Positions 32,271 through 43,049 of a stretch of DNA of 64,000 bases are shown here, in pieces. Each line of letters starts with the position of its first letter. Position 1 is the first letter of the stretch. Position numbers and translations under genes: made by a program. The notes under the pieces were generated by a model. It worked only from the letters and a program-made list of their open reading frames with translations, was not told where the DNA came from and made no database searches. The stretch is from a virus, in UHGV virus genome UHGV-1410950; one strand, given 5' to 3'.

Positions 32271-32525
32271 TTACCACTTGAATTGTCGCTGCTCGTCCTC
32301 GCAGAGCCCGAACAGCTTATGCACGCCACAGTAAACAGCCCCGGCGACGACGACCACCATCACAAGGCCCATCAGCATGGAACCGAAGCCAAGAGACGCA
32401 AGGCCAGAAGTAATGCCTGCTGCACTCAATCCTGAAACCTTCCCCAGAAGGCTGATCAGCAGGATAGGCGTTCCTGCCGCTGCTGCACCTGCTGTGACTT
32501 GTTTTGCCACTGTGTACCCGTTCAT
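32271..32525 (-). CDS. Small membrane protein (84 aa), holin-like candidate
   Basis: Two to three predicted TM helices (PILLISLLGKVSGLSAAGI...LMGLVMVVVVAGAVY) and a charged C-terminus. Followed by a terminator at about 32231-32255. Confidence 0.4.
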   Translation of the reverse strand: MNGYTVAKQVTAGAAAAGTPILLISLLGKVSGLSAAGITSGLASLGFGSMLMGLVMVVVVAGAVYCGVHKLFGLCEDEQRQFKW

Positions 32526-32953
32526 TACCGCCCCTTTTTATGTGTCGCTGAGCGGTGCTGTCCGCTGTAGCGATGGTTTTCATATGCTGGATCGTCAAAA
32601 AATCCAGCACGCTGAGCACCTTTGCCGGAGTAGGCAGAATAAGGCGGTTTAGGCTGGAGACCTGCCATCACATGCCACACGTCATAACAGGCATCGTGGA
32701 ATTTTTTATCCGTGGTCGAATCTTTGAAATTGCTGTACATCATTTCAGAGACGTACTGCACCAGCATGGCTTGCAGCTCCTCGCGGTTAACGATCACACG
32801 GAACTGATAATCGCGGTAATCGTGCGTGACCACTTCTTTGGTCGGGAAATATTTGCTCAGGTGCTCTTTACGGCGAGCGCGTACTTGGATCACTTCCGGG
32901 TCTTGCTTGTCTACGACAGCTGACAGGAAGCCATCAGATAAAATCAGCCACAT
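32525..32953 (-). CDS. Hypothetical protein (142 aa)
   Basis: ORF-track entry. Its stop overlaps the next gene's start (ATGA-type). No domain recognised. Confidence 0.45.
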   Translation of the reverse strand: MWLILSDGFLSAVVDKQDPEVIQVRARRKEHLSKYFPTKEVVTHDYRDYQFRVIVNREELQAMLVQYVSEMMYSNFKDSTTDKKFHDACYDVWHVMAGLQPKPPYSAYSGKGAQRAGFFDDPAYENHRYSGQHRSATHKKGR

Positions 32954-33014
32954 GGCGTATTCCTCAGGTTGGATTGATTAACGACTGAGATAATACGTCA
33001 TGCGTGCCGTATGG

Positions 33015-33878
33015 TCAATCTTTTTTCTTACCTAAATACGCGTCAAGCACCATTTGGTCGGTCTTCATGTTCATCAGCTCGCGCAGCTTGTCTTTCGGTG
33101 CTAGCTTGACGGCCTGCGTTTCCCAGCCCATTGCCACCGGGGATCCTCCGACGCGCTTCGCCAGATACATGCGAGAAACGGACGTGGTGCGCTCAAAGTC
33201 ACCCAGTACGCCAGTGATCTCGATCTGTAGCCCTGACTCCTCCCATGTCTCTTTTATGGCGTTCTGCTGGAGCGTGAGCCCCGGCTCAGTACCACCCTTC
33301 GGGAAAGTGTTCTGGTAGCCGCCGAAAGCGTTGGTCGGGCTGATAATCCACACGCGACCGTCAGGCTCCTCAATGATGACGCCGGACGCCGGACGCTTCC
33401 CGGCTGGTACCATTAACGGCTGCTCGGTCATCTGTTTGGTACCCTTCACAAAAGCCCATCCCGCGTCGGTCTTCGGTGCTCCAGTCCACGGCGCGACCGG
33501 GACGCCGTTCAGCTCCTGCGGCGCAGCACCATTAGGCGTGAAGGTGGCCACCTCGTTGCTTGCTGCCCACGTTGGCGCTTCGGTCGGCTTACTCGGATGG
33601 TTTACCACGACGCGATTGCCCTTCTCCCCTAAGCGTGGGTGATGGACAATTTTCGTCGGCATTCCTTTGCTGGCGGTCGTCCTGTGCGTGCCGTATGGCG
33701 TTGTGGGCAGCGTTGGTTTGCGGAAATAGGCTTTCTTGGCCTGAGGCTTCGCAGGCGCTTTGGGGGCCGCAGGCGCGTCAGGTTTGGCTGCTGCCTTCCC
33801 GTTGTCGTGCGGCTTCACCCAGACGCCATCGCTCCGGCGATAACCCTTCACCTGCGCTTTCAGGAAAAGTTTAGTCAT
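33015..33878 (-). CDS. Nudix hydrolase with Pro/Ala/Lys-rich N-terminal extension
   Basis: Start ATG at 33878 with a GGAAGG RBS, overlapping the upstream stop (AATGACTAA). Nudix box GGTEPGLTLQQNAIKETWEESGL matches GGxxExGExxxxAAxREx2EExG with Lys in place of Arg. The N-terminus contains AKPDAPAAPKAPAKPQAKK. Confidence 0.65.
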   Translation of the reverse strand: MTKLFLKAQVKGYRRSDGVWVKPHDNGKAAAKPDAPAAPKAPAKPQAKKAYFRKPTLPTTPYGTHRTTASKGMPTKIVHHPRLGEKGNRVVVNHPSKPTEAPTWAASNEVATFTPNGAAPQELNGVPVAPWTGAPKTDAGWAFVKGTKQMTEQPLMVPAGKRPASGVIIEEPDGRVWIISPTNAFGGYQNTFPKGGTEPGLTLQQNAIKETWEESGLQIEITGVLGDFERTTSVSRMYLAKRVGGSPVAMGWETQAVKLAPKDKLRELMNMKTDQMVLDAYLGKKKD

Positions 33879-34353
33879 TGCCTTCCACTCCCAGCATCCA
33901 CTGCGCCATGGATTCGACGCTGTTCTGCACGCGGGCGGCGATCTCAGCATCCTTTCCGCCCTTGTCAAATGCCTGGTAAATACTGATCGCAAAGCGGGCC
34001 ATAGCGTGCGCGACGATCAGCGCGGGATCCGTTTCATCCTTCGCCAGCCCCTTCACGTTCTGAATCCAGCGCGGCAGCGCGAAGTCATTCCAGCCCGGCA
34101 GCACGCTAAAGCCTGCGGTGTTACCCACAAAGATGTTAGCGGTGTTCAGCGCCTGCGCACGGTCGGCCTCCAGCGCTTCTTTCTCAGTCATCTGGTTGGC
34201 CTGCACCTTAGCGATGCGTCCCACGATGTCCTTGGCGAAGTTATTCAGGATGGTGCGTGCCACGTTGATATCGCCCAGATAAACGCTGCCATCAGCAGCG
34301 TTCAGACCTTCGATAAACCACGTTGGATCAGTATGTCGGTTCAATTCAGCCAC
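33871..34353 (-). CDS. Hypothetical protein (160 aa), translationally coupled to the Nudix gene
   Basis: Its stop overlaps the Nudix start. Lies immediately downstream of the giant gene. Confidence 0.45.
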   Translation of the reverse strand: MAELNRHTDPTWFIEGLNAADGSVYLGDINVARTILNNFAKDIVGRIAKVQANQMTEKEALEADRAQALNTANIFVGNTAGFSVLPGWNDFALPRWIQNVKGLAKDETDPALIVAHAMARFAISIYQAFDKGGKDAEIAARVQNSVESMAQWMLGVEGND

Positions 34354-34362
34354 AGAGCCCCC

Positions 34363-41797: not shown

Positions 41798-41808
41798 GGG
41801 GGGAATCC

Positions 41809-42141
41809 TTAAATTTTGATTAAATGGGCTTTGTGAATACGCACGGTGCCGTAACTGTAGCGGCCTTTCTTGCGGATATTCAGCTCGTAATACTGCCGGA
41901 AGTCGATCCCCGGCTCATTCCAGTTAAGAGTCACGAAAATGCCATGGACGTGCAGGACATCCAGCGGGCGATCATTGCCACGGATAAACACGCGGTCGCC
42001 GGGCTTGAGCTCCTGCTTGGTGGATTGCATCACCTCCAGCGCAAGATCAGCGTCTACCTCAGTCGCATGGTAGCCAGCCTGCCACGTATACCAGCCATTC
42101 GCGCCAGCTGCGCGGATATGGTTTTTAATTGAGTTGATCAT
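41809..42141 (-). CDS. Hypothetical protein (110 aa)
   Basis: Internal start MINSIKNH at about 42141 with an AGGAA RBS. The longer track ORF extends to 42237. Confidence 0.4.
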   Translation of the reverse strand: MINSIKNHIRAAGANGWYTWQAGYHATEVDADLALEVMQSTKQELKPGDRVFIRGNDRPLDVLHVHGIFVTLNWNEPGIDFRQYYELNIRKKGRYSYGTVRIHKAHLIKI

Positions 42142-42181
42142 GGGTTGGTTCCTTAAATGCCGCATCCCTGCGGCGTGGTTA

Positions 42182-42787
42182 TTATGCTGCGATACCGCGC
42201 TGCCCGGTGGCGATTGCCAGACGAGCCTTGCGGTCATAGTGCCCGATCAGGCCCATGGTGATCAGGATGCCAGCCGCCAGCGAAATAACGACGAGCAGAA
42301 TGACCAGCTGCGCCTGCTTACTGTCTTTGCTGTCTCCGCCCTTGAATAGCTTGCTCACGCTATCCCACGCGCCTGACACTCCACCATTAGCCGCGTTGTA
42401 GATGTTGTGGGCGCTGGCGAATGTGTTCCATGCTGCTGCCCCCATGTTGGCCCAGTTGCGTTCCCGGTATGCCGCGATCCAGCTATGCACGGTGATCAGC
42501 AGCCCTGTACCGATAGCCGGGATAATGATGCCCAGATACCAGAGGCTGATTGCCGCCTGCGCATATTTCTCGTCGAGGTGCCCGGTAAGGTACGCCGCGT
42601 ATACTTCAATGAAGATAATCACGCTGGAAAAGCCGATTGCGGCCTGAATAGCTCCGCACCAGACCAGCACCCGGATCCAGCCGCCAAGGCGTTTGGACTC
42701 GGCCCACATCGTCCCGCAGGTCTTGCAGTTGAACCAGCTGATCAGCAGGTTGAGGGCCAGAATTCCCCACAGCATTAACATTCCCAT
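42182..42787 (-). CDS. Multi-pass inner-membrane protein (about 200 aa)
   Basis: Start MGMLMLWGIL at about 42787 with an AAGGA RBS. At least four hydrophobic helices. Possible superinfection-exclusion or abortive-infection-type function, unverified. Confidence 0.45.
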   Translation of the reverse strand: MGMLMLWGILALNLLISWFNCKTCGTMWAESKRLGGWIRVLVWCGAIQAAIGFSSVIIFIEVYAAYLTGHLDEKYAQAAISLWYLGIIIPAIGTGLLITVHSWIAAYRERNWANMGAAAWNTFASAHNIYNAANGGVSGAWDSVSKLFKGGDSKDSKQAQLVILLVVISLAAGILITMGLIGHYDRKARLAIATGQRGIAA

Positions 42788-42830
42788 TTTGTTTCCTTTG
42801 AAAAGTGCCGGGAGCCTCCCGGCGCGGTTG

Positions 42831-43049
42831 TTATTTATCTTTCTCGCGGTTGTAGCGCTCATGGGTTAGCAGATCCCATGTATCGCCATTATCCCGGCTC
42901 AGCAAACGCCAGCGGATGCCGACCTTTAACGAGATACCACCGCTGCGCTTGAGGTGGGTTATTGCTGCCTCTCCGCGCTGCCACATTTCCAGAATCTGCC
43001 CGGCTTTTATCAGCGCCTGAGCGGGAATTCCTTTCATTGCCTTGAACAT
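42831..43049 (-). CDS. Hypothetical small protein (72 aa)
   Basis: ORF-track entry with a terminator hairpin just upstream at about 43062-43092. Confidence 0.3.
   Translation of the reverse strand: MFKAMKGIPAQALIKAGQILEMWQRGEAAITHLKRSGGISLKVGIRWRLLSRDNGDTWDLLTHERYNREKDK

Follow-up and report, generated by a model that had tools for sequence, protein, structure and literature searches.

Why should a phage encode a Nudix hydrolase immediately downstream of a giant ADP-ribosyltransferase (ART) gene? The question is raised by a 64,000-nucleotide stretch of the virus genome UHGV-1410950 (hereafter the window), in which a gene for a protein of 2251 amino acids (aa; the giant) is followed by genes for a 160-aa protein (p160) and a Nudix protein. 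A preliminary description of this DNA read the arrangement as an accessory cassette centred on NAD and ADP-ribose. Here, we propose that it is the split form of a conserved four-part module, which would consist of a giant with kinase and ART domains, p160, a dedicated Nudix protein and a small protein named p142d (Table 1), and that its products likely travel in the virion.

The evidence that carries this proposal is how firmly the genes keep together. Eighty IMG/VR loci with a Nudix alignment were scanned with local hidden Markov models (HMMs) for the kinase, the ART, p160 and p142d. In a census of 71 unique Nudix domains, a separate Nudix gene stands beside a kinase+ART giant in 43 cases, and Nudix, kinase and ART share a single open reading frame (ORF) in 11. 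Seven further ORFs combine Nudix and kinase and adjoin a kinase+ART giant. Another seven combine Nudix and kinase with no ART detected; six of these are cut by the contig end, and one, L085, is followed by ~10 kb of sequence. Altogether, 68 of the 71 unique Nudix relatives thus adjoin or are fused to the domains of the giant, and the remaining three sit at contig ends, with their neighbours beyond reach. As for isolated phages, this Nudix and the full kinase+ART protein are encoded by one and the same set of eight complete genomes. Synteny of the pair in relatives, the lack of which the preliminary description had named as a refutation, is therefore kept, in the isolates without exception (8/8).

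The gene order recurs over long distances. The succession of a giant, a ~165-aa protein and a Nudix protein, upstream of the terminase, was found in three distant loci, from Salmonella, a Microvirga-associated run and a JGI metagenome. In these syntenic relatives, Nudix identity is only 45-50%, which argues that the arrangement is more than chance. The module occurs in Enterobacteria, Pseudomonas, Aeromonas and many metagenomic lineages, in myoviruses of ~90-100 kb and in phage-plasmid-like elements. On this genomic record, the Nudix protein and the ART-bearing giant are a conserved functional pair. A purely NAD/ADP-ribose-centred view holds in part: the Nudix-ART pair is indeed conserved, but the giant also contains a kinase domain, and Nudix is fused to this domain even in proteins without ART. 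The module is thus not simply NAD/ADP-ribose-centred.

The Nudix protein combines a recognisable catalytic domain with an architecture of its own. Pfam NUDIX (PF00293) matches aa 161-269 (E-value, E, 1.2e-11; 45 bits, cutoff 21.1). Throughout the family, which numbers at least 785 database homologues of the same architecture and 267 stretches in IMG/VR, this domain is preceded by an N-terminal peptide motif (aa 1-27), a disordered Pro/Ala/Lys linker and a conserved subdomain of ~75 aa (aa ~78-152). In line with this, the predicted local distance difference test (pLDDT) score of the AlphaFold2 model exceeds 90 across most of aa 78-135 and 151-280 but stays under 50 across most of aa 1-74.

The Nudix box reads G195-GTEPG-L201-TLQQNAI-K209-E210-T-W-E213-E214-S-G-L, that is, G-x5-L-x7-K-E-x2-E-E-x-G-L. 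Because its three catalytic glutamates (E210, E213 and E214) are invariant in 71 unique sequences, we regard it as well supported that the protein is a competent enzyme, predicted to be a metal-dependent pyrophosphohydrolase. The REx2EE signature announced in the preliminary description is accordingly present in its glutamates, but its Arg is Lys (K209, in 68 of 71), and the full canonical box GX5EX7REUXEEXGU is not matched, as L201 takes the place of the Glu after GX5; both changes are family-wide. The closest relatives in sequence and structure are the Ap4A hydrolase 3i7u, Ndx1 (Ap6A), the diadenosine polyphosphatase Rv2985, DR1025, MutT1 and RppH. Two subfamily assignments were tried and rejected. 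Similarity to T4 NudE is generic only (BLASTP E 0.17; hhalign probability 67% over only 69 columns around the box), which speaks against a T4 NudE-like clade, and an ADP-ribose pyrophosphatase (NudF/ADPRase) subfamily was set aside as the closest similarity lies elsewhere.

The N-terminal motif of the Nudix protein has the family consensus LLxKAHVKGYTRKDGTYVKPHxR. In relatives, a motif of the form LxKAHVxGYTRKDGxxVxxHDD is shared by 16 ORFs that lack a Nudix domain (for example L028:1634-3163, L062:10997-12847 and L061:12238-13995), sometimes with two copies in a protein, and by two giants. Pfam searches of ten such motif-tagged proteins returned one DUF6900 match and nothing for the other nine. 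The motif may be a shared tag or interaction peptide. A likeness at the N-terminus of the window's giant (LxLKA...GY...NGxW) was discarded as lacking statistical support, since an HMM of the motif, run against all six-frame ORFs of the window, matched only the Nudix protein.

The giant does bear the ART domain ascribed to it in the preliminary description, at its very C-terminus and of the R-S-ExE type. Pfam ADPrib_exo_Tox (PF03496) matches aa 2146-2227 of the full protein (E 4.9e-9) and, more strongly, the C-terminal segment searched by itself (E 3.1e-11; 43.4 bits, cutoff 23.4); a PHROG of Alt-like ARTs matches as well. The motifs are R2137, S2164-T-S2166 and E2208-K-E2210. Of the solved structures, SpvB and VsdC come nearest, and their STS and ExE motifs align with those of the giant; the best NCBIfam match is the SpvB arginine-ART model. 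Among 62 unique homologues, E2208 and E2210 are invariant (62/62), S2166 is kept in 59, and position 2137 is Arg in 50 and Lys in 12. In the R-S-E clade, an ExE motif goes with arginine-specific mono-ADP-ribosylation. By its motifs, the domain is an arginine-type mono-ART of the R-S-E clade, and NAD-dependent modification of arginine is predicted.

Upstream of the ART, comparison of homologous giants brought out a conserved block at aa ~1660-1915 to which Pfam is blind. An AlphaFold2 model of aa 1660-1990 (pLDDT 92; predicted template modelling score, pTM, 0.88) has as its top Foldseek match the Helicobacter pylori kinase CtkA (3akl; E 5.5e-7, TMt 0.59). There are 205 matches at E <= 0.001; all of the matches listed are protein kinases, HipA included. 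K1704, E1715, N1777, D1779, N1787 and D1800 are invariant across 75-77 unique homologues of the domain. K1704 and E1715 would be the ATP-binding Lys and Glu, and D1779, N1787 and D1800 the catalytic Asp, Asn and Asp. Based on the model fold, which matches CtkA and HipA, and on this invariant Lys/Glu/Asp/Asn pattern, we call the domain kinase-like; as modelled, it is a protein-kinase domain of the HipA/CtkA type. The Pfam models HipA_2 and HipA_C do not match the window's giant, and the relatives P0152 and P0155 give sub-threshold HipA_2 matches (20-22 bits, cutoff 27). The kinase-like domain is also found alone, at 33-42% identity, in Gordonia phages (e.g. MK814760, 33395-34081) and in Actinomycetia phage DSL-LC01, with genomes of ~115-130 kb. 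The domain thus travels independently of ART and Nudix.

Homologous giants are 1261-1774 aa long and share their N-terminus, motifs, kinase and ART with the window protein. Conserved among them are the N-terminal ~150 aa and a repeat of ~25 aa of the type GPxEGDTKxGxxGMLVFKNGRWH, which all of them keep. Pfam, searched at E up to 10 with six segments of the giant and with the four regions around the repeat motif, recognised only the ART. Two assignments failed. A WGR domain matched the truncated relative P0121 at the equivalent position, and the repeat copies in the window gave no match. For the N-terminal 150 aa, a MuF domain was rejected on an hhalign probability of 0.1% and the lack of a Pfam MuF (PF04233) match.

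The two small proteins complete the module. The succession of p160 and Nudix genes next to the giant, with overlapping stop and start, was confirmed as first described: the Nudix ATG occupies 33878-33876 and the p160 TAA 33873-33871, so that the junction reads ...GGCAATGACTAA, with GGAG/GAAGG just upstream. The overlap is not universal, as 10 of 28 distinct junctions overlap and the others are 2-83 nucleotides (nt) apart, with rough start calls. Pfam, PHROG, NCBIfam and PDB profile searches revealed no family or informative relative of p160; its PDB profile matches are designed helical-repeat proteins only, weak and probably compositional, and suggest a helical protein. Homologues with 16-35% identity were found by HMM in most loci. 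Wherever detected, they follow the C-terminus of the ART in all three architecture classes, and also in L089, keeping this place even where Nudix is fused into the giant.

Downstream of the Nudix gene, p142d has homologues in 59 of 85 loci (29-48% identity), mostly straight after the Nudix gene. Its family holds at least 2911 database proteins, with the consensus MWxCLxNAFLSIV...VRARRKGDI...NFKNSV. It has no Pfam, PHROG, NCBIfam or PDB relative, and a large homologue search yielded unnamed proteins only. Judged by this conservation, p142d is the fourth member of the module. The extent of the cassette therefore has to be redrawn: the giant, p160 and the Nudix protein stay, p142d, which had been missed, is added on the downstream side, and the ORFs upstream of the giant are not conserved. 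The latter, three small genes and a four-transmembrane (four-TM) protein described as part of an operon-like string, are indeed present on the same strand in a string bracketed by terminator-like hairpins, but they lie outside the conserved module. Homologues of these upstream ORFs occur only in near-identical phages, with the exception of the four-TM protein, which is 56% identical in L035.

Where, then, would these proteins act? Several relatives tie them to the phage head. In P0154 (984 aa), a MuF domain, Nudix, kinase and ART form one protein; P0147, P0152 and P0155 are fusions of MuF, kinase and ART, and P0150 fuses Phage_min_cap2 with kinase and ART. In the Pseudomonas juntendi plasmid p2463-1, a Nudix-kinase-ART fusion lies between a MuF-type minor head protein and a head protease and is followed by a p160 homologue. 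GenBank record OR620963 (Yersinia phage fHe-Yen8-01) gives the label 'particle associated protein' to three homologues, those of the giant, of p160 (56% identical) and of Nudix (68%). In the window itself, the giant carries two unrelated effector domains, kinase and ART, in 2251 aa and lies directly upstream of the tail-fibre and TerL genes. By its sequence and setting, it has the build of a polyvalent phage effector: large, multi-effector and beside virion genes. Because of the MuF and minor-capsid fusions, the location in the head module and the 'particle associated' labels, we consider it likely that the giant, p160 and Nudix are packed into the virion, an association taken from the database label, and would be injected with the DNA. 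The same three lines of evidence lead us away from an accessory metabolic cassette and towards injected virion proteins.

Taken together, we propose the following sequence of events. The giant, p160 and Nudix would be made with the late genes, in the neighbourhood of the tail-fibre, terminase and head genes, be packed in the head and enter the next host with the DNA. There, as soon as infection begins, the kinase and ART would modify host proteins. The Nudix protein, in many relatives just another domain of the same polypeptide, would work alongside the giant and cut an ADP-ribose-type pyrophosphate that the ART reaction yields or needs. Candidate substrates are free ADP-ribose, NAD-derived nucleotides or ADP-ribose already on the target. 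We prefer an ADP-ribose-type substrate because of the near-obligate coupling or fusion with an NAD-consuming ART. As a whole, this picture of an early effector set delivered in the virion, with Nudix as the catalytic partner of the kinase+ART giant, is the one we lean towards, somewhat above even chances. We are fairly confident of the module and its delivery, and much less so of the chemistry.

Several observations weigh against it. By its own sequence, the Nudix protein is nearest to hydrolases of diadenosine polyphosphates (ApnA) and polyphosphates, MutT1 and RppH, with ADP-ribose pyrophosphatases ranking lower, and it falls far below every curated NCBIfam cutoff. ADP-ribose pyrophosphatases carry a signature proline ~15-16 residues after the box; in the window Nudix, T232 and S233 occupy these positions past L217. 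The protein itself does not indicate ADP-ribose or NAD as a substrate, and the case for such a substrate comes from context only. As to delivery, no MuF or other recognised head domain was found in the window's giant with Pfam or hhalign. The 'particle associated' wording in OR620963 is the depositor's annotation, for which no paper was found; the terminase of the same record is labelled too, and the label may reflect mere detection by mass spectrometry. In polyvalent phage proteins, moreover, fusion can mean co-delivery rather than shared chemistry, according to passages of PMC5512222. Finally, the unverified faecal contig MT835507 (L088) encodes a Nudix without kinase or ART within 9 kb upstream and 2.7 kb downstream. 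This Nudix (9013-9732; 47% identity over aa 69-281) has helicase, AAA-ATPase and OmpA-family genes as neighbours, and is the only clear exception to the coupling.

The substrate question gives room to the strongest rival, to which we assign a real though minor chance: Nudix could be an independent, co-delivered effector that acts on RNA 5' ends or alarmones, either as an RppH-like pyrophosphohydrolase or decapping enzyme (on ppp-, NAD- or Np4A-capped RNA) or by hydrolysing ApnA. In this way, it would hasten host mRNA decay or dampen stress signalling, and its link with the giant would be a shared ride in the virion only. The nearest relatives listed above, from 3i7u and Ndx1 to Rv2985, DR1025, MutT1 and RppH, fit this idea. 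Kinase, ART and RNA-end hydrolase would all suit an early host shut-off, and polyvalent proteins mix unrelated activities (passages of PMC5512222). However, global similarity predicts the substrate of a Nudix enzyme poorly. The NCBIfam RppH models score only 15-18 bits against cutoffs of 116-241, and nothing equivalent to the conserved subdomain at aa 78-152 is present in the structures of RppH or of ApnA hydrolases. Above all, the Nudix clade is almost never found away from the kinase/ART protein, a coupling tighter than a free-standing effector would be expected to show.

An unlikely elaboration of our preferred reading has the ART and the Nudix protein act in turn on the same host target. 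Here, ADP-ribose would be put on an arginine and its pyrophosphate cut, releasing AMP and leaving a phosphoribosyl mark. Host ADP-ribosylhydrolases would not be able to remove such a mark, and the kinase would add a further layer. Nudix enzymes including RppH trim protein-linked ADP-ribose in vitro (PMC4680915). NARP3 was also considered and judged irrelevant to the module.

Roughly as improbable, or a little more so, is a role in anti-defence, in which Nudix destroys glycocyclic ADP-ribose (gcADPR) or His-ADP-ribose (His-ADPR) made by Thoeris, or free ADP-ribose (ADPR) from host NADases, and so protects the infection. Thoeris-type signals keep a pyrophosphate bond open to Nudix cleavage, an enzyme arriving together with the DNA would be present ahead of any signalling, and passages of PMC9503650 propose the same role for phage Nudix, Macro and NADAR proteins generally. 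Yet nothing specific ties this Nudix clade to cyclic ADPR isomers, and the titles and abstracts of the five papers that a full-text search on Nudix, Thoeris, gcADPR and phage brought up contain no Nudix anti-Thoeris enzyme. The near-obligate coupling to kinase and ART would also be left unexplained. The products of cyclic-oligonucleotide-based anti-phage signalling systems (CBASS), which the preliminary description had named as further targets, are chemically unlikely ones: by established chemistry, these cyclic oligonucleotides have no pyrophosphate bond and hence none that a Nudix enzyme could cleave.

The position of p160 bears on a still more doubtful alternative, that p160 and/or Nudix protect the producer cell by restraining, or cleaning up after, the ART and kinase during assembly. 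In this case, p160 would act as a chaperone or as an inhibitor of the immunity type, and ADPR would be removed by Nudix. A gene right after the ART C-terminus is in the classic position of an immunity gene, also where Nudix lies inside the giant, and the p160 and Nudix genes overlap in the window. A lytic or late-stage producer cell has little need of protection, however, and a Nudix fused in cis to ART and kinase would be odd for an antidote. Since homologues of p160 and Nudix are labelled particle associated, both would travel with the giant rather than stay behind. A role of the Nudix domain in binding or structure, without catalysis, might be suggested by its two family-wide deviations in the box (Glu to Leu after Gx5, Arg to Lys) and by the existence of non-enzymatic Nudix sensors such as NrtR (passages of PMC9503650); given the invariant glutamates, we regard it as very improbable.

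The surrounding DNA gives the setting of the module. The window, a segment of a myovirus genome, shares 96.6% identity with Escherichia phage ECML-606-1 and 95.4% with Enterobacter phage phiT5282EW, each of ~95 kb and with every gene annotated as hypothetical. Nearly all genes of the window lie on the minus strand. In the sense of transcription, the module sits directly upstream of a tail-fibre gene, followed by terminase and head genes, as identified by PHROG searches (Table 1). No paper was found on ECML-606-1, phiT5282EW or fHe-Yen8-01, and the papers on Mecenats66 and Touem01 do not discuss these genes. Plasmids and complete E. coli genomes, when searched by megablast, gave no match to the cassette.

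Table 1. Features of the module and its surroundings, in window coordinates.
Feature	Position	Strand	Basis
Tail sheath gene	11766-13562		PHROG
Major head protein gene	18653-20185		PHROG
Portal gene	23244-25055		PHROG
Large terminase gene	26665-29280	-	PHROG
Tail fibre gene	29327-32182		PHROG
Terminator-like hairpin and T-run at the end of the string, just before the tail-fibre gene	32244-32263	-	
p84, small hydrophobic protein encoded last in the string	32271-32525	-	
p142d, 142-aa orphan protein	32525-32953	-	homologues in relatives
Nudix protein, 287 aa	33015-33878	-	Pfam NUDIX
Nudix box, aa 195-217: GGTEPGLTLQQNAIKETWEESGL	33228-33296	-	
N-terminal peptide motif of the Nudix protein, aa 1-27: MTKLFLKAQVKGYRRSDGVWVKPHDNG	33798-33878	-	family conservation
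8-nt overlap of Nudix start and p160 stop: ATGACTAA	33871-33878	-	read from sequence
p160, 160-aa protein	33871-34353	-	ORF
Giant gene, 2251 aa: N-terminal region, repeated motifs, kinase-like domain, C-terminal ART	34363-41118	-	ORF
ART domain of the giant, aa ~2035-2249, R-S-ExE type	34372-35016	-	Pfam PF03496
Kinase-like domain of the giant, aa ~1667-1915	35374-36120	-	AlphaFold2 and Foldseek
Repeated ~25-aa motif of the giant, aa ~21, 519, 1079 and 1510	about 41050, 39560, 37880 and 36590	-	
81-aa ORF	41151-41396	-	
146-aa ORF	41357-41797	-	
142-aa ORF of the upstream set	41809-42237	-	
226-aa four-TM protein, four hydrophobic segments	42182-42862	-	
Bidirectional hairpin and T-run, overlapping a promoter-like site	43056-43080	both	pattern match only

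Among the remaining genes of the string, p84 is conserved in close relatives only. The 146-aa ORF is the one upstream ORF with a weak Phage_ProQ_C_like match, and the true start of the four-TM protein is probably internal to its ORF. As far as pattern matching can tell, the hairpin at 43056-43080 is the probable upstream boundary of the transcription unit. In the stretch 43056-43109, this perfect bidirectional hairpin (AGCCTCACC...GGTGAGGCT) and its T-run abut a 10/12 match to a sigma-70-like promoter, and the ATG of a 72-aa ORF also directly abuts it; the whole site may be a regulatory boundary of the unit. A promoter scan found no more sites than in shuffled sequence and thus provides no evidence on expression timing.

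Elsewhere in the window, the large terminase is 871 aa long, and its recognisable terminase domain begins only at ~aa 230; in the Mecenats66 paper, the clade of this terminase is separate from the known packaging types. Between the portal and terminase genes, the opposite (plus) strand carries a lone tRNA-Asn (GTT; 25852-25927). On the minus strand, 56821-57975 encodes a 384-aa phage protein whose C-terminus matches the YadA-like membrane anchor domain (Pfam E 5.7e-12) by which trimeric autotransporter adhesins are anchored, an unusual phage cargo. Also on the minus strand, 46844-48355 joins a ParB-like N-terminal domain to a DNA methyltransferase (PHROG 498/620), and 50208-50999 encodes a separate MT-A70 methyltransferase. 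Relatives have ParA-like genes, and ~100-kb contigs are present in Salmonella assemblies, a hint of a phage-plasmid lifestyle.

If our reading is correct, widespread myoviruses of ~90-100 kb and phage-plasmid-like elements carry a protein kinase, an arginine ART and a Nudix hydrolase in their virions. This would offer a system for studying injected enzymes in the first seconds of infection, and would allow the coupling of ADP-ribosylation and Nudix hydrolysis to be examined. The module also brings to light three sizeable unannotated families, namely p160, p142d and the Nudix clade that carries the additional subdomain, as well as a kinase domain unseen by standard profile libraries. That phage heads package ART and Nudix proteins is a general prediction made earlier; the advance would be a concrete, testable module and not a new principle.

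How does the module compare with known systems? The window ART shares Pfam ADPrib_exo_Tox and aligned STS and ExE motifs with the SpvB, C2/C3 and VIP2 toxins. These toxins hit eukaryotic actin or Rho, whereas the target of the window ART must be bacterial. The kinase-like domain has the fold of the HipA and CtkA kinases at aa 1660-1990 and their Lys/Glu/Asp-Asn/Asp catalytic pattern, with 12-15% identity and a TM score of 0.5-0.6. Unlike them, it resides inside a giant beside an ART and has no HipB-like partner. The Nudix protein is 20-28% identical to Aquifex Ap4A hydrolase (3i7u), Thermus Ndx1, Mycobacterium tuberculosis Rv2985 and MutT1 and E. coli RppH, and differs from these in its extra N-terminal subdomain, its peptide motif and the Leu and Lys changes in the box.

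Legionella effectors of the SidE family combine an ART and a phosphodiesterase in one protein and are controlled by the kinase-fold SidJ. The parallel with the window is one of analogy only: in both, an ART is joined to an enzyme presumed able to split the phosphoanhydride of ADP-ribose, and a kinase-fold domain forms part of the system. The two are unrelated in sequence, the window hydrolase is a Nudix and not a phosphodiesterase, and sequential action is without support in the window. Should the ART and Nudix nevertheless act in sequence on one target, the module would be a virion-delivered phage counterpart of the ART-plus-phosphodiesterase logic of SidE.

Another known system is T4 Alt, an R-S-E mono-ART injected from the head, in a phage that has ModA/ModB and NudE/NudE.1 as well and thus also encodes a Nudix active on ADPR, ApnA, flavin adenine dinucleotide (FAD) and NAD-capped RNA. 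Alt has 682 aa and no kinase, and T4 nudE is unlinked to alt, whereas the window places a kinase+ART giant beside its Nudix. A likeness also exists to head-packaged or polyvalent effectors as passages of PMC5512222 (Iyer, Burroughs, Anand, de Souza and Aravind 2017) and PMC9503650 (Iyer et al. 2022) describe them: large, multidomain, host-modifying phage proteins, with an ART beside terminase and head genes and with MuF-fused relatives. There, it is argued from context that the ARTs of phages, like their Nudix, Macro and NADAR proteins, are often head-packaged in myoviruses and among the first to act in infection, and injection is predicted for ART and Nudix alike. The same passages cover T4 NudE-like and NadM-like Nudix proteins, mainly HYD2-type ARTs and a different, truncated Ser/Thr/Tyr kinase family, and contain neither the four-gene module nor a HipA/CtkA-like kinase. 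Against this background, the window module stands apart by its R-S-ExE ART, its HipA/CtkA-like kinase and a separate Nudix clade with a subdomain and peptide motif of its own.

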